DNA of 32,000 nt from Candidatus Vampirococcus lugosii. GTDB lineage: Bacteria > Patescibacteriota > Gracilibacteria > Absconditabacterales > Absconditicoccaceae. The stretch spans positions 1 through 32,000 of the forward strand of contig NZ_JAEDAM010000001.1 of NCBI RefSeq assembly GCF_018420025.1. The letters are read 5' to 3'. Positions 1-27,405 of the stretch are shown here, one piece after another. How positions within the stretch are numbered: the stretch's first letter is position 1; each line of letters begins with the position of its first letter. Made by a program: the position numbers and the translations under genes. The notes beneath the pieces were generated by a model. The model was not told the origin of the DNA. It searched no databases and was given only the letters and a program-made list of their open reading frames with translations.

Positions 1-946
1 TTGTATTTATTCTCTCTACCAACTCTACTACATCTATATTTTTTTCTTTTATATAATCCACTATCGCACTCGGTATTCCCGTATCTGACCAGTAAAACTG
101 AAAATTTCTTTTCAAAATTAAATTATTTATATTCCATGGATTAAATATTGTATCTTCCGAATTTCCAAAATTATATCAATTGTAATACAATTTTATTTTA
201 TCTTTTATTTCTTTTTCCTCTTTTCATTCTTGTTCAGCTATTTCTTTTATTTCTTCTTCAAAATTTTTTTCTATATCTTCCCAAGTATATCACATTATAT
301 CATAAACAAAAGGATCATAACTTATATCTTGCAAATTATTCAAACTTGAAAATATATTCATTTTTAATATTTTCGTCAAGCCTGTAAGAAAAAACATTTT
401 TATATATTGATCTGCATCTTTAATTCATGAATAAAAAGCTCCAAAAAATTCTCTATAATATTCTGCTTTTTTTCTATCTTGTAAATGTGTTAATATTACT
501 TTATCATATTCATCTATCAATACTACTACTTGTTTTCCTGTCTTTTCATATATTTCTTTTACCAAATATCATAAATCTATTTCATCTACAAAATCTTCTA
601 TTTTATATATTTTATCTTCTATATATATATTCAAATTATATTTTATAAATTTTTCTACATCTTTAAATTTATTATAACTTGCAAAACTTATATACACTAC
701 TGGATTTGTTTCTTCAAAATTTCGCTTATCATAAATATATGTATTTTTGAATAATTCTTTTTCTCACATATACAAATATTTTATCATTGATAATGTTAAT
801 GATTTCCCAAATCTTCTTGGTCTAGACAAAAAATAATAATTATTACTTATCAACAAATTATATATTATTTTAGTTTTGTCTATATAATAATAATTATCTG
901 TTATTAATTTCTTAAAATCTTGTATTCATATTGCTATTTTTTTCAT
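1..946 (-). CDS. AAA-ATPase-like domain protein (PF09820-type family; partial, 3' end runs off the window)
   Basis: ATG at 946, open with TGA=Gly down to position 1. Translation MKKIAIGIQDFKKLITDNYYYIDKTKIIYNLL..YYFLSRPRRFGKSLTLSMIKYLY.., VVLIDEYDK, YNGYNFG and FNPWNINN match the 'predicted AAA-ATPase' family. That family usually carries a C-terminal PD-(D/E)XK domain, which is not visible here. Confidence 0.75.
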
Positions 947-1119: not shown

Positions 1120-2583
1120 ATGAATAATACATTAGATCATTATCCAGAACATTTTAATGAAATTAATTATGACAAACAATTAAATGAACAAATTGTTTCT
1201 ATGCTTATATCAAATTTTGGTGATTGACAGTTTCAATATATTATTGATAAAATTTGAGCAAGTGTAATAGATTTTCATAATATTGATACATATACAAGTG
1301 ATAATATAGCAGAATTTGTAAGATACATTGTTTGAGATGAAAATATAAATGAAAGTGATTGAAATTTTTTTATTAGTAAAGAATGATTTGATATAATATC
1401 TGAATTATTGGAAGATGCATCAAAATATTATAAAAATTTATTTCATAGAGATATACCAAAATCTTTTTGTCCAAATAAATCTTGATATAAATTTAATTGA
1501 TTTGATGATTTTTTTTCTTTTGTAAAATGAAAAACTTCTTCAAATAATTTAAGAAATAATAAATTCAGACAAATTACTTGTAGTTTATTAAAAATTTCTG
1601 TTGTATTGAGTAATATTAGAAAAAGTGGTTTTTTGGAAATGGCAGAAAATGATTATAAACAAATATGTGATGAATATTTTGATGGGAATTGCGATGAATT
1701 TACAAAAATTAAAAAATCTGAAAATGATTATAGAACATTACCAAATAATACTTATGGATTATATCCAGTAGACTTTAATCTTATTTGAAGACCAAAATCT
1801 GAATCAAGTATATTATTAAAAATGTTATCACAATTTGAATATTGAGCAATAGAATCTATAAAAGATTTAGTTTGATTTAAAGCTGAAGTTTCTAATGAAA
1901 AAGAAGCAATTCATCTTATGGAACATATTTATTATCATTTTTTTTCTCAAGACAAACATATTTGAATAATTGCTAAAAATAAATGACTTTTTGATCATAA
2001 ATATTTTTTGGAAAACAAATATTTGTTTTGACAAAAATTTATATCTACTATACAAAGAGATATAGTATGAAAAAAATCTGAAAAAAAACCAAAAACTTGA
2101 GATAATTACAAAGATGTAAAATTTACTTGACCAGTTAAAGTATGAGATAAAACAATAAATTCTGTAGAATTTCAAATAGTTTTGGTAAATAATAACAATG
2201 AATCTTGATATAATGCACATAGTATAATGCATTGAGCAAGAGTTTTGGAATCAATGATTAGATTACAATGATATATTACTATAGCATATATGAAAAGAAT
2301 AATAAAAGAAATTTTGGAAAAAAATGAAGAAATATTACCATGATTAGAAATTGATGTTCGTATAGACAAGATATTTAATGAATTTATGAGAAATCGTTGA
2401 TTTGCATATCTTTATCTTCCTAATTGAAAAAGAAAAAAACAAGAAAAATTTATAGTTTCCAAAAATGATTTTGTTAGATTATCCAAAAATTGATTTATAC
2501 CTCCAGATAGTTTAATAGAAATAAATGATGATAGTTGATACAAAATATATAGTTATGATGATTTAGTTGAAAATAATAATTAA
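1120..2583 (+). CDS. Hypothetical 487-aa protein with a central RelA/SpoT-like (RSH / small alarmone synthetase-like) nucleotide pyrophosphokinase core
   Basis: ATG 1120 to TAA 2581-2583, no in-frame TAA/TAG, many sense TGA. Motif order and spacing resemble RelQ-type synthetases. PVDFNLIGRPKSESSILLKM (from nt 1786) resembles GRVKxxxSILEK. IKDLVGFKAEV (D at 1864) resembles DIAGLRI. NYKDVKF resembles GYRSYH. SVEFQIVL (E at 2167) resembles VEIQIRT, followed by a His about 17 residues later. The N- and C-terminal regions are unrecognised. Confidence 0.5.
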
Positions 2584-2584
2584 A

Positions 2585-4165
2585 ATGAAAAACAATTTAT
2601 CCAAGAAGATTTTAGATTTATCAGATGTAAAAAAAATAAATCCAGATAATGATAAATTAAAAATACTTTCATATTCTATTGCTGAAAAAGCACAAGCAAT
2701 AATTTTTGATGGTGACTCAAAAAAATTACATATACTTACAACTAATAATTATCCATCTATTTTGACACAAATTTTAGATAAAATTGCTGTTAAATGATAT
2801 AAATTTGAATTTTTTTATGTAGATGAAGTGTCTTTTGCTTTTGCTATGAATTGGTATGATAATTTGTATAAAGAAGAAAAAAAAGCAGAAGATTTATTAA
2901 AACAAAGAAAAACAGTTAGATGAAAATATGCGATAGATGTATTAAAAAAATTATATGAAGAAAAATCTAAATATTCTGAACAAGAATTTATTACTGAATT
3001 AATAAGACTTTCTTTTCAATCTAATGCATCAGATCTACATTTTCAACCAGAAGAAAGTGGTATAGTACTTCGTTTAAGAAGGGATTGAATTTTGAAAACT
3101 ATATTAGTTTTTGAATATCAAGAATTCAAAAAATATTTGGTAAAACTTAAATTTATGGCTTGAGTTAGATTAAATATTTCCAAAACTCCTCAAGATTGAA
3201 GGTTTGATTTTGTAAGTTATAATAAAGATGAAACTACAAAAAAAATAGATGTCAGAGTAAGTTTTATGCCTTGACTTAGATGAGAAAGTATTGTTATGAG
3301 ATTTTTGGATTCTACAAATTCTGTATTATGATTTTGAGATATTTGATTTATGTGAGAGACATTAAATGTTCTTAGTAGAAATTTAAAAAAAAAGCACTGA
3401 ATGATATTAGTAACTTGACCTACTTGAAGTGGTAAAACTACAACATTATATTCAATGTTAAACTATTTAAATACTCCCAGTAAAAAAATAATAACTTTGG
3501 AAGATCCAGTAGAATATGAATTACCATGAATTCAACAAAGTCAAATATCTGCAAAAAATTGATATAATTATGAAGATTGACTTAAAGCTGTATTGAGACA
3601 AGATCCAGAAATAATAATGGTTTGAGAAATAAGAAATTTGGAAACGGCAGAAATAGCAATAAATGCAGCACTTACATGACATTTAGTAATATCTACTTTA
3701 CATACAAATAGTGCAATAGAAACAATATCTAGATTATTAAGTATGTGAGTAAAACCTTATATGTTAGCTCCAGCATTAAATTTGGTAATATGACAAAGAT
3801 TATTGAGAAAATTACATACTTGTAAAAATAATAGAAAAGCAAAATTAGCAGAAGAAGAAGATATAAAACAAAATTTAAAATCTATGAAAGATATTAATAA
3901 AAATATAAAAGAAACTTTTGATTGATATGTACCACTACCAAGTGGTTGTGAAAAATGTGGTTCTGATTGATTTATGTGAAGAATAGCAATAGTAGAAACT
4001 TTTGAATTAAATGATAACATAAAAAATACTATATTAAATGATAAACCAGATATATATATGTATTCTGAAGCAAGACAATCATGATTTTTGACTATGAAAG
4101 AAGATGCATATATAAAAATGTTAAATTGACTTACTACTTTGGATGAAATAAGAAGAGTAGTATAA
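2585..4165 (+). CDS. pilB: Type IV pilus / type II secretion family ATPase (PilB/GspE-like)
   Basis: ATG 2585, 1 nt after the upstream stop, to TAA 4163-4165. Motifs include [34 protein letters not shown] and [10 protein letters not shown]. Walker A LVTGPTGSGKTT at 3416-3439 has both leading Gly encoded by TGA. Also present are [39 protein letters not shown] and a Cys cluster GCEKCG. Confidence 0.92.
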
Positions 4166-4285: not shown

Positions 4286-5962
4286 ATGAAAAATATATTA
4301 AATTTTATAATTATATTTATGTTTATCACAGTAATTTGAATAATTAGTTTTATTGTTCTTTGATATTTTAAAGAACAAGAATCTATAGATGTAAACAAAC
4401 AAAATTTAAATAATATTAATTTTATTAATTTTTATTTACAAAAAAATTATAATTGAAATTATCCAAAACCATATTGAGATGTTGTATTATTAGATTCAAA
4501 TTTTAATAAAATACATTTGGAAGATTCAACAGTATCTTATGAAAATATTCCTGATTTATATGCTATTCAATGAACTACATGTAGTTTGGGTATAAATGAT
4601 GAAGAATTTAATAAATATAACTATGATATTAGATATTCTGTTTGAGAAAACAAAAGATGTTATTCTTATTCAGTATTAAATGATAATAGCGAATATCAAA
4701 TATGATATATACAAAATATAAATAATCAAAATATATGATATCTTACATGAAGTATAGATATTTCCAAATCTATAACAAAAAGTTATAATTCAAGTAAATT
4801 AGTAAAAAACTCTTCCACACAAACTTTACCATATATGCCATCATTTAATAATAAAATAATATTGGAAAAAATATCATGAAATGCCGATATTGAAGTAATT
4901 GAAACAAGTAAAGATTTAGGTAAAATTGATTTATGAAATTTGAATAATGATATTAATTTAAATGATGATGTTAATATACTTCCTCATTTAGATAATGTTG
5001 AACAAATAGATTTAAGTTTTGAATGAAAAGAATTTGTATACAAAATAATATATCCAAATTGAAATTTACAAATAATTAGTCCAAATAAGAATTCTATTGC
5101 ATCATTATCTATTAAAGATTTTTACTATGATTGAGAAAAATCAAAATTTAAAATATTAGATAATGTTTGAAGAATAGCATATGATTTTGTAAAATTATGA
5201 TGAGATTCTGATTATGAAATTAGTGATTCCAATAGTTGAGTTTTGGTTATAAGATGAACAAAATTTTCTCTTGATTCTGATTCTAAATCAAGTCTAACTC
5301 ATTTATCCAAATGAAGTATTGAATATAATTTAAATTGAAAAAAATATTTAGTAAACTCTCTAGCAAATTTATTCTTTTTTGATCAAAATATGAATTTATT
5401 AAATATAAATGATTTATGAAAAGATTTATCTAATCTTTTATGATATTCAATTGCTGTTTCTTTATTGGATTATGAAATTGACCTAGAATATGTATCTAAT
5501 CATTCTGCTTCACCTGAACTACCTACTATCATCACTGATAATTTAGAATTATCAAAAAATTTTGAATTGAATAATGATTATAATAAATATTGATTTTTTG
5601 TTTTTGATTGAAATTTAACTCAGTCTATTCAAAAAAATCTTGTAATATCTTGAAAATATTTAAATGATGAATTTGACAATATATGTAAATCTAATTGATT
5701 TAATTGACTTGCTAGTATAGATGATGCAAAAAATATATTAGATACTAAAGTTTTTTCTGATGATAAAATAACTTTTGAAATAAAAGAAATATTGAGTGAT
5801 AAAATAAATAAAAATTATGATATAATATTTAATAAAGTTTGAAATAGTCCATCAAATACAAAAATAACTTATTTTAATAGTAGAACTTGATTTATTGATA
5901 ATACTAATTATATAGATTCATCTTGAACTTGAAGAGATTGATCCGTTGTTTTTTGTAAGTAA
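4286..5962 (+). CDS. Membrane-anchored 558-aa hypothetical protein with a pilin-like N-terminal architecture
   Basis: ATG 4286 to TAA 5960-5962, checked codon by codon. N-terminal hydrophobic helix MKNILNFIIIFMFITVIGIISFIVLGYF. It is followed by NLNNINFINFYLQKNYNGNYPKP, which resembles the post-helix DLxxIxxALxxYxxDNGxYP segment of pilin/pseudopilin proteins. There is no canonical G/FTLxE prepilin site. The rest is N/S/D-rich and unrecognised. Confidence 0.45.
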
Positions 5963-6181
5963 ATATAAAAATATTTTTTATAACTTATATAATTTTTTAC
6001 AATATTATTAATATAGTAAAATAAATAACATATAAAAATTTTTAAATTTGATAAATAGCACTTTGGAAAAATATAAACAATCTTAAAAAATAAATTCTTC
6101 TTATTTTTTATTAAATAAATATTGACTTTAAGAATAATATTTATATATATAAACAATATTTTATATATAATAAAAAAGAAT

Positions 6182-7834
6182 ATGTTACAAATTACACACC
6201 AAATTGAAGATGAAAAAATAGAAGAAATTATACAAATAGAAGAATTATCAAAAGAAATTTATATGTTATTGAAATGAGATATTGAAAATATTGAATTAAA
6301 TCCAAATGCTGAATCTGAATTCAAAAAAGAATTAAAAGAAAAATTTGAAGAAAAAATTATATGACAAGAAAAAGCAAAAAAAGCTTTGATAGAAGCTGTA
6401 TTTAATAATATTGCACCTATTAGAAGTAAAAAATGACCATTATGAGTTTTCTTTTTTGCTTGACCTTCTTGAGTTGGTAAAACACAAATTACAAAAGTAT
6501 TAGCTGATATTTTGTTATGATCAGAAGATTATATAACTAAAATAGATTGTGCAGAATTTTCCGAAGATCATACTGCTAGGAATTTATTTTGAGCACCAAA
6601 AAGTTATGTTTGATATTGAGAACCTACCCCACTAAATGATATAAATTTATTTAAATCATATCAAGAATCAAAAAAAAGAAATTTAATTCATAGACAAATC
6701 TCAAGATTAAATAGTTTTTCAATATTATTGTTTGATGAAATAGAAAAAGCACATCCAAATATTCATCAATCATTATTATGAGCAATGGCAGATGGTAAAA
6801 TAAGATTTCCTAGTTGAAAAGAAAGTGATAACAAACTTAAATACAGTCAAGAAACTGATCTATCAAATACAATAATAATATTTACATCAAATGTTTGAAA
6901 TAGAGAAGCAATCAAAAAATCTATCGGTTTTGTGCAAGAAAAAAATGATGAATGACAAAAAGCAGATTATAAAAACAGTTTTAATAAAGTTTTTTCACCA
7001 GAATTTATCGGTAGAGTTGATGAATTTATTACTTTTGAAAATTTGAATAAAGAAGATTTATTTGAAATTTTGAAAAAAGAAGTACTAGATATATCACGAC
7101 ATTTTTGAGTTCTTGAATGAAATTTTAAATTAAATATTAGTGATGAAGTTTTAAAAAAAATTGTTGATAGATCTTTTTCAAAAAAATATTGAGCTAGACC
7201 TGTTATTAATGATTTTACTAAAACTGTTGAAGCAGATATAAATAATATTATAAATTCTTGACAATTAGAAAGTTTGTTTGATATTAAATCATTTTCTTTT
7301 GTAATAAATGTTGATTTAGATCATAATTGAAATTTTAAATATACTTTATCAAAATATAATGAAATATCAGAAGAAAATGATATAAAAAATTCTTTGGATA
7401 AACTTAAAAAATATATAGAATACTCTTTCAAAGAAGATATTGATATTGATGATAAAATTAATAAAATTGAAGAAAAATTATTATCAAAATTTGATAAAAA
7501 AGAAATATCTATAATTAGAAATAAAATTTATTCAAATATGATTCTTGATTTTGATATGATACATGAATTTGATGATTATGAATGAATAAGTATATCAAAT
7601 AAAGAAGAAAAAAATTTATTATGAAAATTTTGACGAAGAAATACAAAAACAATTGTAGATAGAAAATTAGAAATTTATAAATGAAAATTTAATTATAATA
7701 ACGATAAATTTATAGAATATATTTGAGAAATTTTTGTTATGGTAGAAGAGTTAAATGGCGAAGTACTTAACCAAAAACAAATAAAAGAAATAATGAAAAT
7801 GATTGATGCATACAAAAAATCAAGAAAAAAATAA
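6182..7834 (+). CDS. Single-domain Clp/Hsp100 D2-like AAA+ ATPase with an unrecognised C-terminal extension of about 170 aa
   Basis: ATG 6182 to TAA 7832-7834. Motifs include IIGQEKAKKALIEAV and KSYVGYGE. Walker A FFFAGPSGVGKT has TGA Gly codons at 6461 and 6470. Walker B is LLFDEIEKAHPNIHQSLLGAMADGKI. FSPEFIGRVDEFITFENL and YGARPV are also present. Only one AAA+ module is present, and I saw no N-domain, D1 module or ClpP-docking loop. Confidence 0.75.
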
Positions 7835-18056: not shown

Positions 18057-19751
18057 TTATTTTTCCAAATTTCGTTTATTTCTATCTGGATTATAATCTT
18101 GTTTTACTTGTTCTCAATTGTTTATTAATTTTATTAACTTATCTATAGTCTTAATTTCTTTTTCAAAAACTTTCTTATCATCTCATTGAAATATTTCTTC
18201 TTTTAACTTTAATTTTTCTTTTATATTTTCCAATATAGAAATATCTCTTTCTTGAATAGATTCTTTTAATGCATCAGTATATTTTACTAGATTTACTCAT
18301 TTTATCATACTTGTATTAGCTGGTTTATTATCAATTTTTATTTCTTGAGATGTTTCCACTTCTTTACCAGTATATTCTTTATAACTTACTTGTATATTAA
18401 TATTTTCTTGTATTTGTTCTTTTAATTTCAAAAGAATTATAGATCATCTATGTCATTCAGTTTTGGGAGGAGTAGGAAATAATGTATTAATAGACATTAA
18501 TTCATTTTTATGATTATCTAATCAATAAACTTTTTCAATATTATCTTCATTATCTATATTCATTTTCAAATTAAATATCATAGGAAAAAAGTTATAATCA
18601 AATTCATCTACAATTCTCTGAGAAAATTCCCAAGCATCAGATATATAAAAATAATTATTTCATTCAAATTTTCATATTTTTTGTACAAATTGTTGTTGAA
18701 AATCTACTGCTACTCAAAAGAAAGAAAAATAAATATTATCTTCAGATGCATCTTTTACCATATTAGCTAATCATCAAGCTGAATAATCTCACATATTTGG
18801 CATAGCATCAGTAATAAAAAGAACTCTATTTTGATATCAACTTTTCATATCATCATCAAATAAAGATAATCATTTTTTCATTCATGATTCCATATTAGTA
18901 CCACCTCAATCTCTTACACTTTTTAAATGTTTTTTCAAAGAAGATTTATCTATATTTTCTACTTTTATAAGTTCATGAGCAATATATGCAGAATCATCAT
19001 ATAAAACAATTCATATTCTATCATCTTCTCTTAATTTGTCCAACATTTTTGACATAGCCTGCATAGCAAATTCCATTCTAGATTGTTTACTAATCTCAGT
19101 ATAATCATCTATAAATATTTGTTTATCTTCTTGAGAAATACATTTTTTTCATGGTGCAAAATATAATTCATTTTGAGTATCACATAAATCACTTTCATAA
19201 ATATAATCTTGAGTATTTTCATAATAATATTGTGATAAAGCTCATCACATACTTCAACTTTTATCTATTACCAAAACAAAATTAGTAGGAGGTCTTTGAA
19301 AATCTTCATCTTTTATATTAGATCATAAAGATATTTGTATCCAGTTTTCATTGTCTACTTGTCAATAATCAACTAAAGGACAAAACATTGTTTCACATTC
19401 TCAACTTGGCTGTTGAAAATGATAATCAGAAAATATACCATTATAAGTTATAGTTTCAAGACTTGGTATATGTCATTTTTCAATATTATCTCTAAAAAGC
19501 ATCATATCTTGATCAGCTCATACTTGAAATCAAATATTTTCTTGTAATGTATTAGTATCATATAAAGCTCATGGTGAACTAGGATTAATTCAAGAATTAT
19601 TACTAAATCATTGTCTATTATAAGTAGATTTAGAAACTTCTTCTTGATATTTCCAATGATCACTTTTTTCAGTAATACTAATTTTATCAATACATCAAGT
19701 CATAAAAATAAATGATAATATTATTGTAAACCATAAAATTGTTTTTGTCAT
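18057..19751 (-). CDS. Lipoprotein with a von Willebrand factor type A (VWA) domain (YfbK/BatA-like)
   Basis: ATG at 19751 to TAA 18059-18057, checked codon by codon. The signal peptide ends in the lipobox FMTGC, whose Gly is TGA. The N-terminal segment is IPSLETITYNGIFSDYHFQQP. MIDAS motif VLVIDKSGSMGG, plus GGTN and VLFITDAMPN. The tail is coiled-coil-like. Confidence 0.8.
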
Positions 19752-19849: not shown

Positions 19850-20485
19850 CTATAAAATATCTATAATCCTATCAAATACTTCTTCTTGAGTTCAAGAAGC
19901 ATCAATAATAAATAAATTTCACATATTTTGAAAAGTATCAATAACAGGCTTTGTTTCTTCTTTATATAATCTTACTCTTTTTTTAATAGCATCTGGATAA
20001 TCATCCTCTCTTTTTATTAAAGAATCAGATCAACAATATGTACAAGATTTTAATTTTCAAGAAATATTTGAAAGAGTTGCTCAACAATTAGAGCAAATCA
20101 ATCTAGATGAAAGTCTTTCAATAGCTTTATCTTCAGATAAATCTAAATATACTGCTTTATAAGATATATTTTTTTTTGAAGTTAAATCTATAAACTGTTT
20201 CATTTGATTTATTTTTCTAGGATAACCATCAATTAATATATTATCATTATCTGATAATGTAGTCAAAAAAGCATTAAACAAACTAGAAATAAATTCATCA
20301 TTAATTAAATTTCAAGAATCAATTATTTCTTTTACATAATCTCAAAGACAATTTGGTTTTGATTTAATAGCTCTAAGTATATTACCAGCTTCAAAATATT
20401 TATAATTAGAAAATTTATTTAATAACATTTTTGCTTGAGTTCATTTTCAAGCTCACTGTACTCAAAATAATACAATATTATTCAT
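19850..20485 (-). CDS. adk: Adenylate kinase (zinc-LID type)
   Basis: ATG at 20485 to TAG 19852-19850. In the P-loop LFGVQGAGKGTQA, all four Gly (codons 8, 11, 13, 15) are TGA. Also LIDGYPR and the LID CSNCG...CTYCGS. Confidence 0.92.
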
Positions 20486-20558
20486 CTAATAATTTTATTA
20501 AAAATAAAAAAAGACAAACAACACAATTAAATATTGTACTGATCGTCTATGACAAATT

Positions 20559-20981
20559 TTATCTCTTTGTCCATTGAGGTGATTTTCTAGCTTTTTTCAA
20601 ACCAAATTTTTTCCTTTCTTTTTCTCTTGAATCTCTTTTCAACAAACCAAAAGGTTTAAGTTGTAATCTATATTCAGAATTGAAAGAAACAAGTGCTCTT
20701 GAAATGGCAAGCTTAATAGCATCAGCTTGTCATCTAAGACCTCATCAAGAAACTTTAATATCAAGATCAAATCTATCAACAATACCAGAACCTATAGTAT
20801 AAAAAGAATGTAATGCAGATTCTATTAAATAATCATGTCATCCAAAATATTCTTTAATAGAAACTTTATCTCATCACTTATTTATCATAATATTTCAATT
20901 ACCACCTTGAAACAATTTTACTTGAGCAGTAGATTGTTTTCTTCTTCAAAGTCAGTACTCATATTTTTTTTCTTTTATCAT
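20559..20981 (-). CDS. rpsI: 30S ribosomal protein S9
   Basis: ATG at 20981 to TAA 20561-20559. Motifs [36 protein letters not shown] and C-terminal [12 protein letters not shown]. Confidence 0.95.
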
Positions 20982-21436
20982 TAATCAATTTTTTCAGGAT
21001 TTAAATAATCATATTTATTTGAATCTCAAGCAAATATTTTAAGTCTTTTCATTTTTCTATCTCTTAATTTATTTTTTGATAACATTCATCTCACACAATA
21101 CCAAATAACATTTTCTGGCTTTTTTTCCAATAATTCACTAAGAGACATAGCTCTAACATTTCATTTATATCAAGAATACCTATAATATTGTTTTTGATCT
21201 AATTTTTTTCAAGTAACTTTTATCTTACTAGCATTTTTAACTACAACAAAATCTCAACAATCCCAAAAATCACAATTATATTCTTTATATTTTCAAGATA
21301 ATCTATTAGCTATTAATGTAGAAACTTTTCATAAAGTTTTTCATTCCACATCAATTTCAAACCATTTTCTATTTTTCTCAGACCATTCTTTCTTAACAAG
21401 AACAGTTTTGTTTAAATTATTATTTGTAAATTCCAT
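20981..21436 (-). CDS. rplM: 50S ribosomal protein L13
   Basis: ATG at 21436 to TAA 20983-20981, overlapping the rpsI ATG by 1 nt (TAATG). Motifs KWFEIDVEGKTLGKVSTLIANRL, GDFVVVKNA, YYRYSGY and MLSKNKL. Confidence 0.93.
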
Positions 21437-21465
21437 ATATTATTTATTATATTCTAAAAAGAAAT

Positions 21466-21852
21466 TTATACTAATTTTACTAAAACTTCTTCTGCACTAT
21501 CTCACTTTCTATATCATAACTTATATGTAGAAACAAAACCAAACTTTTGTCAAGAATCTACATATTTAGGAAGTATTTCATTAATCATTTTTTTTCATTC
21601 TTCATTTCAAAGAATAGTAGATTTAACATAAGATATTGACAATCTTTTTGCATCAGCTTCATCATATCTTGATGTAAGCCCAACAAGATGAGACAAAAAC
21701 TTATCCGCTTCACTTTTCAAAATTTTAGCTTTTTTTGATGTAGTTTTTATCTGTCAATTTTTAATAAGACTAGTCAATAAATTTCTAATACGTAAATCAA
21801 ATTTTTGAGCTCAAGGATTTAAATCCTTAAGTTTATTATATTTATGTCTCAT
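21466..21852 (-). CDS. rplQ: 50S ribosomal protein L17
   Basis: ATG at 21852 to TAA 21468-21466. MRHKYNKLKDLN..RIRNLLTSLIKNGQIKTTSKKAKILKSEADKF. Confidence 0.88.
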
Positions 21853-21889
21853 TCTTTTTAAATATATTATAAGAATTAAATATTTAAGT

Positions 21890-22888
21890 TTATCAAGCAA
21901 GAGATTTTCAAATATCGTTCAATGAAACAATAATTTCATCAACTGCTTTTCTTCAAACTCACTTCATAGTCAACAATTCTGATCTTCTTTTTTTCTCTAA
22001 ATCTTCTACATACAGAATATTATTTTTAATAAGAGCATTTCTAGTTCTTTCACTAAGTGGAATTACATCAATAGGTTTTACTTTAACATTATCTTGATCA
22101 GAGGATTTATTAATTATATTATCCTTTATATCTCAATATTCTGTCAATAAAGATTTATCAATATAAGCTTCGTCAAAAACAAATAAATTTGAATAAGAAG
22201 ACAAAACTTCTCAAACAAAAGAAAGAATTTGTTTAGGAGTAATTTTATTAGAGATAGTTTTAATATCTATATTTAGTTGATCTTTACTAGATCAAGTAAA
22301 ATCATCAATATGTTCATCTATATCATATTTAACATATTCAACTAACTTAAAATCATTATCTATAAGCAAAATTCATATATCATTAGAATCTAATGTAGAT
22401 TCCCTTTTTTTCAAAAAATCTATACTATAATATGAATATCATTTTTCTATTCTATATTCAACTATCAATTCAATAGATGGATCAGTAATTTCAAACAAAT
22501 ATTCATGTTCATTCAAAATATCTATACCAGAAGGTAGTCTTAATGACGAAGCATCATATTTTCAAACTCAAGAAAATCTATGAAGAACCCAGTTAATTTT
22601 TTCATGATTTATATCAAGATTAAAACGAAGTTTCTTAAAATTTAATATAACATCTAATGCAGATTCTTTAACACCATCTATAGTATCATATTCATGAGGA
22701 ACTCATTTTATTTTTAATCAAGTTATTGCTCATCAAGAATTATAACCCAAGATAGCTCTCCTAATAGCATTTCAAAAAGTATGTCAAAATCATCTTGGCA
22801 AATATTTCACACAAAAGATCGTATTAGTATCAGATACTTCATCTATAACTATTTTAGGTTTTCCTATATAATTTTGGATATCTAACAT
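21890..22888 (-). CDS. rpoA: DNA-directed RNA polymerase subunit alpha
   Basis: ATG at 22888 to TAA 21892-21890. Motifs LPRGFGHTFGNAIRRAIL, ITGLKIKGVPHEYDTIDGVKES and the C-terminal-domain motif LSERTRNALIKNNILYVEDL..LLTMKGVGRKAVDEI. It ends ..LAG with a sense TGA directly before TAA. Confidence 0.93.
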
Positions 22889-22927
22889 AATAATTTAATT
22901 AAGAATTATTTAATAAATTTTTATTAA

Positions 22928-23551
22928 CTAAGCTCTAGCATAGAATTCAATAACTTTCAATATATCAGCAGGTAAAGAAATTTCTTCAGACCTAGGAAAA
23001 TCAATAACTTCTATTTCAAAATTGTCTTTCTTAACATTTAACCAAGTTGGTAACTTATAATTTCAAGAAGATAATGGAATAGAAGAATACAAAGGAGATG
23101 TTATTAATTTTGATTTCAAAGAAATTTTATCTCATACTTTAACAAAATAAGAAGAAGAATTATGTTTTTTTCAATTCAACAAAAAATGACCATGTCACAC
23201 CATTTGTCTAGCTTGCATTATAGTATTAGCAAGTCATGCCCTCAAAACAACACTATCCAACCTCCTTTCCAAAAATTGAATAGCTACCTCATCATGAGAA
23301 ACTCATTTATTTTTGGCATATTTTCAAGCTTCATCAATAACAGTTCTTTTAAATTGCTTTTCAGTCAAAAGATACATTCTTTTAATAACCTGTTTATTTC
23401 TAAGTAATTTACCATACTCAGAAAGTCTAGACATAGTAACTCAGTGTTGTCAAGGAGTTTTTTTTCTTTTTCTTACATCATATTTATTAACTCAAAAAAG
23501 ATTTATTCACTCTCTTCTACAAAGCTTAAATTTGGGTCAATTGTATTTCAT
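22928..23551 (-). CDS. rpsD: 30S ribosomal protein S4
   Basis: ATG at 23551 to TAG 22930-22928. Motifs [59 protein letters not shown] and PTWL. Confidence 0.94.
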
Positions 23552-23589
23552 AATAATAAAGTTATTAACTTAAATAAATTAAACAAAAA

Positions 23590-23985
23590 TTAATTTCTCT
23601 TAGGTCTTTTTCATTTACATCATCAAAATTGTATAGCAGTATTTTCTCTAATCAAAGATATATCTATACCTCACAAATCATTAATAGCTTTAAATACACC
23701 ATCTCTTCACATTCAAAGTCATTTCATATATATAGATATTTCTTTAAGTCAAAAAGAATCTCTAGCTTGTCTCATTATTCAACTTGTAAGCATTTCAGCA
23801 GCATAAGGAGTACTTTCTTTAGTTCACTTAAATCATGCCATTCATGTTCATCATCAAAGAACTTTATTTCATGATTCATCAGTTAAAGTAACTAAAGTAT
23901 TATTTGAACTAGTAGTAACAAATAACTTTCCAACAGGAAGTTTAATATTCTTTTTTTTCTTAGACTTTATATTTTGTCTTGCCAT
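23590..23985 (-). CDS. rpsK: 30S ribosomal protein S11
   Basis: ATG at 23985 to TAA 23592-23590. Motifs GKLFVTTSSNNTLVTLTD, GFKGTKESTPYAA, GLGMGRD and GGCKGKRPKR. Confidence 0.93.
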
Positions 23986-24006
23986 AATAAAAAATTAAAT
24001 TATAAA

Positions 24007-24381
24007 TTATTTCTTCAATACAGGTCTTACCCTACTTCTTCAAAGCAATTTCTTTGCAGTTTTAGCATGTTTAATAGTTTTTTGTCATCTAACTGGTAAT
24101 CACAAATTATGTCTCATACCTCTATAACATTTTATTTCTTTTAATCTTTTGATAAATCAAGTTTGTTCTCTCTTTAGATCACTTTCCAAAAGATAATTTG
24201 ATAATTCATCTGTTATCATTTTTTGTTCTTCGTCTGTTATATCTCTAACTTTTTTTTCAAAAGGAATTTCTAATTTAGTCAAAATTTCTTTAGATCTAGA
24301 GATTCATATTCAATAAACATGTGTTAATCAAACAAATATAACTTTATTATCTGGTATAACATTTCCTTGAAGTCTAAACAT
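24007..24381 (-). CDS. rpsM: 30S ribosomal protein S13
   Basis: ATG at 24381 to TAA 24009-24007. Motifs LTHVYGIGISRSKEIL, IKCYRGMRHNLGLPVRGQKT and KTAKK. Confidence 0.93.
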
Positions 24382-25437: not shown

Positions 25438-25458
25438 CAATTTAAAATAAAAGCGAAA

Positions 25459-25543
25459 TACCGGGAACCGGACTTGAACCGGTACTCTAAAATTTAGAAG
25501 CGGATTTTAAGTCCACCGCGTCTACCAATTCCGCCATCCCGGC
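25459..25543 (-). tRNA. tRNA-Leu (anticodon UAA), type II with long variable arm
   Basis: Hand fold: GCCGGGA / TGGCGGAATTGGTAGACGC / GTGGA-CTTAAAA-TCCGC / variable arm / ACCGG-TTCAAGT-CCGGT / TCCCGGT-A. Discriminator A73, G1:U72 wobble, no encoded CCA. Confidence 0.9.
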
Positions 25544-25563
25544 AAAAAGAACAAAATCCCAAA

Positions 25564-25911
25564 TTATTTAGAGATTTCTTCATTTATTTTATCAAAAACT
25601 TCAGGAAAAACAACTGCAATATTAGATAAAACTTTTCTATTCATAACCACATTATTAGTTTTCAACTGATTAATAAAGACACTATATTTAGAACCTCTAG
25701 ATCTAAGAGCTGAAGAAAGCCTATCTATCCATAATTGTCTAAACTGTCTTTTTTTCAATTTCCTTCATATATAAGCATTTTGTCATTGTTTTATTAAAGC
25801 CAACCTAACTTGTTTATAAACATTTTTTCTTCAAAGTCTAAATCATTTAGCTTGTTTCAAAAACTTTTTATGCCTTCTATGTCTAACAAATCAATTAGTA
25901 ACTCTTACCAT
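25564..25911 (-). CDS. rplT: 50S ribosomal protein L20
   Basis: ATG at 25911 to TAA 25566-25564. MVRVTNGFVRHRRHKKFLKQAKGFRLGRKNVY...RQLWIDRLSSALR...VMNRKVLSNIAV. Confidence 0.94.
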
Positions 25912-25915
25912 ACTA

Positions 25916-26113
25916 TTATAATTTATAAGGAATTAAATTTCTAACTTTCTTTTCTTCTTTATGAGATAATACTCTACCATAAGGATCCTTTTTAGGTGAA
26001 GAACCTTTATTTGTAAGCAAATGACTAACTCAAGCCTTTTTATGAATAAGTTTACCAGATTTAGTAACTTTAATTCTCTTAGCCATTGATTTATTAGTTT
26101 TAACTTTATACAT
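25916..26113 (-). CDS. rpmI: 50S ribosomal protein L35
   Basis: ATG at 26113 to TAA 25918-25916. MYKVKTNKSMAKRIKVTKSGKLIHKKAGVSHLLTNK. Confidence 0.88.
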
Positions 26114-26114
26114 T

Positions 26115-26660
26115 TTACTTAACTTTAGCAAATAAAATCATACTATATCCTCTTTTTTCTTTTTTAATTCATTGTCATTTACTTATATCAATAAGCAATG
26201 ACATTATATACTCTAATCTAGAATATAATTTATCTGCATAAATATTTTCTCTTCATTTAAGCTGACCAAGAAATTTTACAGTATGTCAAGACTCCAAAAA
26301 CTTTTTTGCTTGAGATATTTTCATTTCCAAATCATTATCTCAAATATTATAAGAAAACTTTATCTCTTTCATACATTTAGATTTTTGAGACTTCTTTTTT
26401 TCTCAATCTTCTTTCTTTTTTGAATACAAATATTTTCAAATTTCCATTATTTTAGCAGTAACAATTTTATCTTTTGGATCAAATCAAACCTGAATCAAAT
26501 CTTTCATCTCTTCTTCTGCCTTCAATAAAGCATCTCTTTTTGAAAAAATTCAAAGATTAACTCATTCCTCATCTATTAATAAAATTTTATCTCACCTAAT
26601 ATACTCATTAGTATACAATTTTTTATCATAATTTTTACTATTAGAAGAGCCAAAACCCAT
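26115..26660 (-). CDS. infC: Translation initiation factor IF-3
   Basis: ATG at 26660 to TAA 26117-26115, 1 nt before the rpmI start. Motifs IRGDKILLIDEEGVNLGI, EEEMKDLIQV, KEIKFSYNIGDNDLEMK and GHTVKF. Classic infC-rpmI-rplT order. Confidence 0.88.
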
Positions 26661-26693
26661 ACAAAAAATTTAAATTATAAATCGCCAAGACCA

Positions 26694-26768
26694 CATCCCT
26701 GGCGGGATTTGAACCCGCGATCTCTGGCATGAGAGGCCAACATCCTAAACCAACTAGACGACAGGGAC
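26694..26768 (-). tRNA. tRNA-Glu (anticodon CUC)
   Basis: GTCCCTG TC GTCTAGTTGGTTTAGGAT G TTGGC-CTCTCAT-GCCAG AGATC GCGGG-TTCAAAT-CCCGC CAGGGAT G. The Glu-type GTCCC...TCGTCTAG pattern is present. G1:U72 wobble, no CCA. Confidence 0.85.
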
Positions 26769-26776
26769 AAATAAAC

Positions 26777-26850
26777 TACACTTGGAAGGAATCGAACCTT
26801 CAACCTACGGCTTAGAAGGCCGTCGCTCTATCCGATTGAGCTACAAGTGC
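26777..26850 (-). tRNA. tRNA-Arg (anticodon UCU)
   Basis: GCACTTG TA GCTC AATCGGATA GAGC G ACGGC-CTTCTAA-GCCGT AGGTT GAAGG-TTCGATT-CCTTC CAAGTGT A. G1:U72 wobble, no CCA. Confidence 0.88.
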
Positions 26851-26872
26851 AAAACAAAAAATTAAAATAAAT

Positions 26873-26946
26873 TGGAGTCGAGGGGACTCGAACCCCTGAC
26901 CCCCTGCGTGCAAAGCAGATGCTCTAGCCAACTGAGCTACGACCCC
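26873..26946 (-). tRNA. tRNA-Ala (anticodon UGC)
   Basis: GGGGTCG TA GCTC AGTTGGCTA GAGC A TCTGC-TTTGCAC-GCAGG GGGTC AGGGG-TTCGAGT-CCCCT CGACTCC A. The G3:U70 alanine identity pair is present. No CCA. Confidence 0.92.
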
Positions 26947-26960
26947 AATAAATTTTAGAA

Positions 26961-27043
26961 TGGGCAGAGTAGGATTCGAACCTACGTAGCCGTGAGGCGG
27001 CGGATTTACAGTCCGCTGCATTTAACCACTCTGCCATCTGCCC
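26961..27043 (-). tRNA. tRNA-Tyr (anticodon GUA), type II
   Basis: GGGCAGA TG GCAGAGTGGTTAAATGC A GCGGA-CTGTAAA-TCCGC long variable arm GTAGG-TTCGAAT-CCTAC TCTGCCC A. No CCA. Confidence 0.9.
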
Positions 27044-27055
27044 AAATTTAAAAAA

Positions 27056-27331: not shown

Positions 27332-27405
27332 AGCGGGCAACGGGACTTGAACCCGTACAGGCAGAGCTGAATTCTGCCATGCTACACCAATTACATCATG
27401 CCCGC
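27332..27405 (-). tRNA. tRNA-Gly with anticodon UCA (decodes UGA)
   Basis: Hand fold (74 nt): GCGGGCA TG ATGT AATTGGTGTA GCAT G GCAGA-ATTCAGC-TCTGC CTGT ACGGG-TTCAAGT-CCCGT TGCCCGC T. The anticodon loop has U33, T34 C35 A36 and G37. The acceptor stem G1:C72, C2:G71, G3:C70 and discriminator U73 are bacterial tRNA-Gly identity elements (compare E. coli GCGGGAA...TTCCCGC-U). No CCA. Confidence 0.88.

Follow-up and report, generated by a model that had tools for sequence, protein, structure and literature searches.

What does the gene at 1120-2583 (+) of contig NZ_JAEDAM010000001.1 of Candidatus Vampirococcus lugosii encode, and does the resemblance of its product to RelA/SpoT homologue (RSH) enzymes reflect kinship, working catalysis or mere chance? 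The organism is a predatory epibiont of the Absconditabacteria within the Candidate Phyla Radiation (CPR) (PMC8080830), and the stretch of DNA analysed here as a whole, hereafter the window, comprises the first 32,000 nucleotides of that contig. An earlier reading of the letters alone (the sequence-only reading) had described the 487-aa product as an ORFan hiding an RSH-like catalytic core. Bacterial stress signalling is centred on RSH enzymes, which have recently also entered toxin and anti-phage biology. Our answer, to which we assign a probability of roughly 60%, is that the gene encodes a three-domain chromosomal protein with a central, highly divergent RSH synthetase fold, putatively a pyrophosphokinase, which serves housekeeping or regulation and not a toxin–antitoxin (TA) or defence function. 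While the RSH fold itself is known, the family that carries it here is unannotated and CPR-wide, combines its domains in a new way and has an altered pocket for the acceptor.

Reading frame, genetic code and motifs

The window has a GC content of ~20%, and when read with the three stop codons of table 11, the region 1120-2583 splits into short fragments. With TAA and TAG as sole stops, it instead forms one complete open reading frame (ORF) of 487 aa on the forward strand, closed by a TAA at 2581-2583 and containing 26 in-frame TGA, no TGG and 4 GGN codons, and ORF coverage of the window amounts to ~98% as compared to 5% with three stops. Across 30 genes of the window, TGA accounts for 5.2% of codons, TGG for 0.6% and GGN for 1.1%, shares which give a normal usage of glycine and tryptophan only if TGA means glycine. 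Furthermore, TGA encodes invariant glycines in the P-loop of Adk, in two Walker A motifs, in the uracil-DNA glycosylase (UDG) motif and in motif 3 of lysyl-tRNA synthetase (LysRS), and the motif glycines behind the RSH proposal are TGA codons as well. The window also carries a decoder of UGA, a 74-nt tRNA-Gly(UCA) at 27332-27405 (-) identified by ARAGORN, Rfam and its acceptor stem; the stem shows G1-C72, C2-G71 and G3-C70 with discriminator U73, which we take to be the identity elements of a bacterial tRNA-Gly. Codon statistics, TGA-encoded invariant glycines and this tRNA thus establish code 25 (TGA = Gly) within the window, and the first two rule out code 4 (TGA = Trp). As the protein is also 100% identical to a V. 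lugosii 'hypothetical protein', the suggestion of a code-25 CPR genome, made from the letters alone, is borne out. ARAGORN labelled the tRNA 'SeC' from its anticodon alone and Rfam saw a standard tRNA; its length is normal, and anticodon-only annotation mislabels this UGA = Gly decoder as tRNA-SeC.

All peptides quoted in the sequence-only reading are present, and their spacing was confirmed: LIGRPKSESS carries G223, R224, K226 and S230, with the motif running on to K234, KDLVGFKAEV carries D249, G252 and K254, GDNYKDVKF carries Y330, D332 and K334, and SVEFQIVL carries E350 and Q352, with His367 following 17 residues past E350. The ORF is confirmed to carry RSH synthetase motifs in their canonical order. 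As placed by alignment and hhalign, all on the forward strand, these are a syn1-like R224-P-K226-S-E-S-S230-I-L-L-K234 (RxKxxxSxxxK; 1789-1821), which by analogy would bind the phosphates of ATP, a syn2-like D249-L-V-G252-F-K254 (DxxGxR; 1864-1881), Y330-K-D332-V-K334 at the syn3 position (2107-2121), a syn4-like E350-F-Q352-I-V-L (2167-2184) and a syn5-like N358-x-N360-E361-x-G363-x-x-x-H367 (2191-2220).

Around these motifs, the protein comprises a mostly helical N-terminal domain (aa 1-205, 1120-1734) with family-conserved D51 (95%), C154 (98%) and K158; a linker (aa 194-212, 1699-1755) of predicted local distance difference test (pLDDT) values < 50 in the AlphaFold model, leading from the N-terminal domain to the catalytic core; the RSH synthetase-fold core (aa ~214-405, 1759-2334), delimited by Pfam, profile searches, hhalign, AlphaFold and Foldseek; and a small C-terminal alpha/beta domain (aa 411-487, 2350-2580), recognised from AlphaFold and family conservation.

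A divergent RSH synthetase fold

An exhaustive HMMER scan of 1.84 billion representatives returned 87 proteins at E <= 1e-3 (29 at E <= 1e-10), most of them 440-520 aa long and aligned over residues ~85-405; a word-indexed homolog search recovered the query alone, whether it started from the single sequence or from the family profile. The label of an ORFan without obvious family thus had to be abandoned, as there are 87 cluster representatives, 35 verified loci and, as detailed below, a distant sister relationship to NCBIfam TIGR04552/TIGR04562. In a 64-member family alignment, which has a mean column identity of 16%, K226, K234, D249, E350 and N360 occupy 100% columns, and D51, C154, R224 (98%) and R381 are nearly invariant, which makes the motif residues the most constrained positions of the family. 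In syn1, S230 reaches 66%; in syn2, position 254 is R in 44% and K in 12% of members, the query having K. The syn3 position keeps Y/F330 in 92%, with D332 standing for S in 69% and K334 for H in 87%, so that the family departs from GYxSxH, and in syn4 Q352 reaches 61%, being otherwise R/K, and V354 and L355 take the place of RT. N358, N360 and R381 are invariants specific to this family.

About two-thirds of the family's database proteins (P0002-P0087) contain 3-7% Trp and < 2% Gly, which identifies them as code-25 genes translated with table 4 (TGA = Trp). When W and G are merged, G252 reaches 84%, G337 77%, G363 91% and G384 84%, so that the glycines of DxxGxR and ExGxxxH are conserved too. 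Table-4 translation hides such conserved glycines and probably lowers the sensitivity of homology and Pfam searches for Gracilibacteria and Absconditabacteria proteins generally; many public protein catalogues translate code-25 genes in this way, and the family exposes this practical problem.

Which known proteins does the core resemble? At E <= 10, PF04607 (RelA_SpoT) was the sole Pfam match of the query (E = 0.02, 15.6 bits, below the gathering threshold of 27), and no TGS, ZFD or ACT/RRM domain appeared. Weak PF04607 matches occurred in 10 of the 64 family members (best E = 3.9e-4), and four of eight correctly translated members scored 16.7-21.1 bits, two spanning profile positions 2-111 of 113. 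Among PDB sequences, neither the single sequence nor the profile gave a significant match, the top two matches of the family profile (E ~0.3-0.5) being a GTP pyrophosphokinase and Rel, aligned at RxKxxxSxxxK...DLxGxR. Compared by hhalign with a profile of 120 PF04607-bearing Rel fragments plus E. coli RelA, the family core gave a collinear alignment of syn1-syn5 over 119 columns (P = 9e-5, score 34.2), in which R224...K234 pairs with RPKHIYSIYRK, D249 with the D of DLLAVR, Y330-x-D-x-K with YQSLH, E350-x-Q with EVQIRT and E361-x-G...H367 with AEYGVAAH, reproducing the mapping that had been made motif by motif from the letters. In the controls, 40 column shuffles scored 12.5 +/- 2.3 (maximum 19.1) and the reversed alignment 11.4, which places the observed score at z ~9; with controls far lower and with motif residues that are invariant family columns, a chance pattern match was rejected.

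AlphaFold2, run with the family alignment, gave a confident model (pLDDT 86.5, predicted template modelling score (pTM) 0.89) with a helical N-terminal domain to ~190, the disordered linker, an alpha/beta core and a small C-terminal alpha/beta domain. The core has the topology beta1-alpha-beta2-alpha-beta3, helical insert, beta4-beta5-alpha-alpha, with strands at 220-223, 251-257, 284-287, 333-341 and 344-355 and flanking helices; D249 lies directly before strand 251-257 and E350 inside strand 344-355, and both align with Rel catalytic residues. With Foldseek, 49 of the 50 top PDB matches were RSH enzymes (Rel, CapRel, RelP, RelQ, S. aureus Rel, SpoT, Rel_Seq, RelA), led by B. subtilis Rel (E = 2.5e-3) with probabilities to 0.99, and rank 37 was Tam41, a non-RSH nucleotidyltransferase. 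An independent viral structure library returned as its best matches phage 'RelA/SpoT' proteins, a Tas1-like protein and large MuF-type toxins. The N-terminal domain modelled alone (pLDDT 83.5) found no PDB fold match (best E = 1.7) and serves as an internal control, indicating that the RSH matches stem from the core.

By Foldseek, the core has the same alpha/beta synthetase fold as the small alarmone synthetases (SAS) RelQ/SAS1 and RelP/SAS2 (5DED, 5DEC, 6EWZ, 6FGJ) and the synthetase (SYNTH) domain of long RSHs (B. subtilis Rel 6YXA, Rel_Seq 1VJ7). Shared with these are the collinear syn1-syn5, RxKxxxSxxxK, the Asp of DxxGxR/K, the aromatic stacker, Glu-x-Gln and ExGxxxH. In contrast to them, the family stays below the PF04607 threshold, has DxK for the SxH of syn3 and VL for the RT of syn4, adds N358, N360 and R381, carries an insert of ~50 residues (aa ~288-330) between beta3 and the syn3 strand, and possesses an additional 200-aa N-terminal domain without known fold and a 77-aa C-terminal domain. 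Sub-threshold Pfam matches, the PDB profile search, hhalign and Foldseek are four independent lines of evidence, and all converge on RSH. Taken together, they support the conclusion that residues ~214-405 adopt a genuine, if very divergent, RelA/SpoT-type synthetase fold, as judged from sequence comparison and the model; the core claimed in the sequence-only reading has thus stood up, as has its proposed check by AlphaFold and Foldseek, which retrieved almost only RSH enzymes.

Several points nevertheless weigh against this assignment. No curated threshold is reached, and the proposed HMMER comparison with PF04607 did yield matches to the query and to members, but all of them were sub-threshold (15.6-21.1 versus 27 bits). 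All Foldseek E-values exceed 1e-3, and the template modelling (TM) scores normalised to small SAS targets are 0.34-0.54, with large root mean square deviation. The AlphaFold input alignment included rows with Trp in place of Gly, and that D249 and E350 lie side by side on neighbouring strands is something that we infer from homology. Moreover, the RSH comparison profile is of low diversity (effective sequence number, Neff, 3.2), and the second half of the domain alone is not significant in hhalign. The stronger hhalign result obtained with 38 correctly translated genome-derived sequences (P = 2.8e-6, 88% probability, score 43.8) used a 'clean' profile chosen via a syn4-syn5 pattern, so that conservation there is partly by construction; that alignment is driven by the unselected syn1-syn2 half.

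Could the likeness then be spurious, be it chance motifs in a low-complexity AT-rich ORF, another nucleotidyltransferase family or the 'Restriction endonuclease' named by UniRef? Scores of sequence and structure below the usual significance thresholds, the UniRef name and Tam41 at Foldseek rank 37 would fit such an explanation. However, four independent methods converge on RSH and on nothing else, shuffled and reversed controls fall far lower, the top PDB matches are RSH enzymes with a single exception, the motifs coincide with invariant columns, and no nuclease family or fold was matched in any search. We regard this explanation as very improbable and largely refuted. The UniRef name itself (NCBI: 'hypothetical protein') was set aside, as no family or fold match supports it; the genome paper on V. 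lugosii puts the number of restriction endonuclease genes at five.

Distribution of the family and the question of defence

To find related loci, we designed by hand a DNA pattern that spans E350...H367 and is neutral to the genetic code, Gly being written KGN. A single match fell in the window, where 0 were expected, and a scan of 185,579 species genomes yielded 37 loci; 35 of these are true members (family hidden Markov model (HMM) E 2e-14 to 1e-120), and the two failures are close to the estimated number of chance matches. Most hosts are Gracilibacteria; others are metagenome-assembled genomes (MAGs) assigned by label to Peribacteria, Moranbacteria, Altimarinota and Saccharibacteria, plus one MAG each under the names Bdellovibrionales and Gammaproteobacteria. 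Ca. Absconditicoccus praedator, Gracilibacteria and Peregrinibacteria are among the relatives that carry a name. The family occurs both in recoded genomes (12-25 in-frame TGA) and in standard-code genomes (0-1 TGA). The reference RSH census relied on HMM search (PMC7229694), and a family below the Pfam threshold would plausibly have escaped it.

In nine sampled contexts, the neighbourhoods are varied and housekeeping-like, with genes for amino-acid biosynthesis, RidA, RNase HII, an rRNA methyltransferase and two-component systems. These contexts contained no conserved small neighbour and no bicistronic TA layout, the flanks differing in each lineage, and no adjoining integrases or defence genes. 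PADLOC gave no defence-model match beyond a weak WH_III-A (E = 0.0016), and PHROGs gave no match.

Such contexts bear directly on the suggestion of phage defence made from the letters, in which the protein would be a fused toxin–antitoxin akin to the toxic small alarmone synthetases (toxSAS) or CapRel, that is, an RSH toxin that pyrophosphorylates tRNA or makes (p)ppApp, is restrained by its own flanking domain and is released on phage infection. Members of toxSAS (FaRel, FaRel2, PhRel, PhRel2, CapRel) and the secreted toxins Tas1 and MuF Apk2 are RSH-fold pyrophosphokinases with divergent syn motifs that use acceptors other than GDP/GTP (tRNA 3'-CCA, or ATP/ADP), and they are among the structural matches to the family: CapRel 7ztb_A is the second-best Foldseek match (E = 4.5e-3), and phage RelA/SpoT, Tas1 and MuF-toxin domains lead the viral structure search. 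In addition, the extra N- and C-terminal domains could in principle autoinhibit, a trait of such systems being a fused C-terminal antitoxin (pseudo-ZFD) by which the active site is gated, and a fused single-gene system needs no antitoxin neighbour. However, the CapRel match has a TM-score of 0.17-0.22, no better than housekeeping Rel, RelP and RelQ, and the syn3 and syn4 of the family differ from the adenosine-type GxN and YH (PMC12226406). The hallmark of toxSAS is an operon of two or three genes that is conserved and includes an antitoxin (PMC7229694), whereas the sole conserved neighbour of the present family is a T2SSE ATPase of 524-532 aa in one subclade; neither a bicistronic TA operon nor an immunity gene, prophage or secretion-system context was seen in the sampled loci. 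The distribution likewise spans whole CPR lineages instead of being patchy, as for toxSAS and secreted toxins. We therefore consider a toxSAS or CapRel role improbable, and the earlier defence claim is not supported. With its varied housekeeping contexts, its presence under both genetic codes and no relevant PADLOC or PHROG match, the family is probably a lineage-wide housekeeping or regulatory CPR enzyme and not a TA or defence module.

Some of the taxonomic labels call for comment. The contigs L031, L037 and L043 (the contig of L003), labelled 'uncultured Candidatus Peribacteria', have 12-24 in-frame TGA in the family gene and 26-28% GC; they behave like code-25 Absconditabacteria/Gracilibacteria, so that their labels look doubtful. 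The MAGs L044 (labelled Gammaproteobacteria) and L045 (labelled Bdellovibrionales), which encode strong members with HMM scores of 352 and 275, use the standard code at 32% GC and represent either a real occurrence outside the CPR or a binning error; if real, they would be of interest given the link of TIGR04552 to Bdellovibrio.

Active site, flanking domains and the pilus ATPase

What, then, might the enzyme do? Its donor and metal half is conserved and its acceptor half is remodelled, with Y-x-D-x-K for GYxSxH and ExQxVL for ExQxRT. In the proposed mechanism, R224, K226, S230 and K234 would form a basic cradle holding ATP-Mg2+, with the G252-x-K254 loop over the adenine, and D249 and E350, on neighbouring strands, would bind Mg2+ and activate the 3'-OH of the acceptor ribose, the acceptor being stacked on Y330. 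The acceptor would then attack the beta-phosphate of ATP, whereby pyrophosphate would be transferred and AMP released. From the absolute conservation of the ATP-phosphate cradle and the Asp/Glu pair we infer a working RSH-type pyrophosphokinase.

In RSH enzymes, syn2, syn3 and syn4 hold acceptor-specific signatures: guanosine-type enzymes have SxH, which recognises guanosine, in syn3 and IR in syn4, whereas (p)ppApp synthetases have GxN and YH (PMC12226406). The DxK and VL of the present family match neither signature. With its acceptor half thus remodelled, and with N358, N360 and R381 in addition, the enzyme probably binds its acceptor in another way than RelA/RelQ bind GDP/GTP. A competing view holds that the lineage in fact uses this protein as its (p)ppGpp or (p)ppApp synthetase, a diverged small alarmone synthetase with regulatory domains that makes a canonical product despite altered acceptor motifs. 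It could draw on the fully conserved donor and metal residues, the aromatic stacking position Y/F330, the G-x-R/K of syn2, which is near the guanosine-type signature, and the lineage-wide, housekeeping-looking distribution. Furthermore, a canonical stringent-response gene is unmentioned in the V. lugosii genome paper and in the searched CPR literature, where searches for RSH or ppGpp in connection with CPR, Gracilibacteria or Absconditicoccus brought up no relevant work. Yet with SxH changed to D-x-K in syn3 and I-R to V-L in syn4, its motifs are neither of guanosine nor of adenosine type (GxN/YH), and we hold this view to be tentative and on balance unlikely.

The same loss of canonical SxH and RT on the acceptor side may be taken to indicate a catalytically dead RSH-fold pseudoenzyme, acting as a nucleotide-binding regulator or scaffold, e.g. 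for the PilB ATPase described below, to which the gene is tightly coupled in one subclade; the large non-catalytic domains would also suit such a role. But K226, K234, D249 and E350 are absolute, and R224 almost so, at 16% mean identity, as is expected of a working site, and N358, N360 and R381, the newly invariant residues, are grouped next to the catalytic Glu, suggesting a pocket that was re-tooled and not decayed. We accordingly give little credence to a dead enzyme.

If the pyrophosphokinase is indeed catalytic, it would be a candidate nucleotide-signalling enzyme for minimal, host-dependent CPR bacteria, in which none is annotated, and it would widen the sequence and substrate space of RSH by a third kind of syn3/syn4 signature, next to those of guanosine and adenosine type.

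The flanking domains set the family apart from long RSHs (Rel/RelA/SpoT), as neither an HD hydrolase or pseudo-hydrolase nor a TGS, ZFD or ACT/RRM match was found. The N-terminal domain showed no similarity to the HD hydrolase region (hhalign P = 0.31), and together with the missing fold match this led us to reject a pseudo-HD identity; hints of a winged helix (MntR, SSo2273, and the PADLOC WH_III-A match) were too weak to assert. The C-terminal domain is kept in the family, has no family match and lies past the end of the TIGR04552/TIGR04562 profiles. It had been anticipated that the flanks would be without assignable family, and they are.

Over the N-terminal domain and the RSH-like core, the family is homologous to TIGR04552/TIGR04562, whose profiles (352 and 356 positions) stop with the core and leave the C-terminal domain uncovered. 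The query matches them with E = 4.9e-4 and 19.4 bits over aa 46-270 versus profile positions 11-209; 19-20 of the 64 family members match (best E = 2.7e-12), other members scoring 22.7-40.7 bits with core matches that cover profile positions 162-352. Since 19-41 bits fall well short of the 125 and 140 bits set as curated cut-offs, the family is, on these profile comparisons, a distant sister of TIGR04552/TIGR04562 and not a member. A fold can now be assigned to these uncharacterised TIGR04552-related proteins. By literature, the TIGR family belongs to Myxococcales and Bdellovibrio, whereas the present one is CPR-centred; examples of the TIGR family are Myxococcus xanthus MXAN_4858 and Bdellovibrio sp. 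NC01 DOE51_RS08710. The literature search on TIGR04552 found only two mentions: a Bdellovibrio gene acquired an indel in long-term co-culture with prey during experimental evolution (PMC9888234), and M. xanthus MXAN_4858 adjoins the G1 gliding-motility cluster and has a glt-like fitness pattern (bioRxiv 10.64898/2026.08.28.747804). This literature concerns predatory bacteria, and Vampirococcus and Absconditicoccus are predators too, which may be coincidence.

Directly downstream, a PilB/GspE-type T2SSE ATPase is encoded at 2585-4165 (+), its ATG lying 1 nt past the TAA of the target gene, and no terminator was found between the two genes in the window. V. lugosii and A. praedator share this arrangement with two more MAG lineages (36-40% identity): in each, a T2SSE/PilB-type ATPase of 524-532 aa begins 1-25 nt behind the gene and is read in the same direction, whereas all other neighbours differ. 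In Absconditabacteria, the gene and that of the PilB-type type IV pilus ATPase are probably expressed together, a hint that the product of the enzyme is connected with pilus function. The genome paper on V. lugosii gives prominence to type IV pili, for host attachment and DNA uptake, and leaves ppGpp unmentioned. If the family is catalytic, this pairing in predatory Absconditabacteria, together with a Myxococcus relative beside gliding genes, would make a link between such signalling and the surface machinery used for predation testable.

As to function, too, there are counterweights to our preferred reading. The loss of the canonical SxH and RT could mean that pyrophosphokinase activity was lost or that another chemistry took its place; TIGR04552 and the present family are both functionally uncharacterised; and the PilB adjacency occurs in one Absconditabacteria-type subclade only, in 4 lineages of ~40 loci. 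A bolder extension of the reading, which at present seems speculative and rather doubtful, would make the family a deep-branching, CPR-wide RSH branch, with remote TIGR04552 cousins among predatory Myxococcota and Bdellovibrionota. Its re-tooled pocket would take an acceptor that is neither GDP/GTP nor ATP/ADP, so that pyrophosphorylation might yield a new nucleotide messenger or a macromolecular modification, and in predatory Absconditabacteria its output might control the PilB-driven type IV pilus with which they attach to prey and feed on it.

The remaining surroundings of the gene can be described briefly. Upstream lies a divergent, AT-rich intergenic region of 173 bp (947-1119) with one promoter-like match at 1054-1081 that carries no statistical weight; the promoter scan was uninformative in DNA of 20% GC (36 sites versus 37.5 expected). 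Beyond it, a divergent gene runs off the window start at 1-946 (-) and encodes a 'Predicted AAA-ATPase' (PF09820, E = 2.9e-51), a neighbour not kept in other lineages. Directly 3' of the PilB-type gene, 4286-5962 (+) encodes an Asn/Ser/Asp-rich protein of 558 aa with one N-terminal transmembrane helix and no Pfam match, which may be surface- or pilus-associated; this gene is not conserved beside PilB in relatives. It is followed at 6122-7834 (+) by a ClpB-like single AAA+ module (AAA_2 + ClpB_D2-small) with a C-terminal extension of ~190 aa without family match. Further along, 18057-19751 (-) encodes a putative lipoprotein of 564 aa (N-terminal signal with Cys) with a VWA domain, which fits the elaborate Vampirococcus cell surface. 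A block of ribosomal-protein genes, rpoA and adk occupies 19850-24381, after infC/rplT/rplU-like genes, and near the latter a tRNA cluster at 25458-27044 (-) comprises Tyr-GTA, Ala-TGC, Arg-TCT and Glu-CTC with a separate Leu-TAA.

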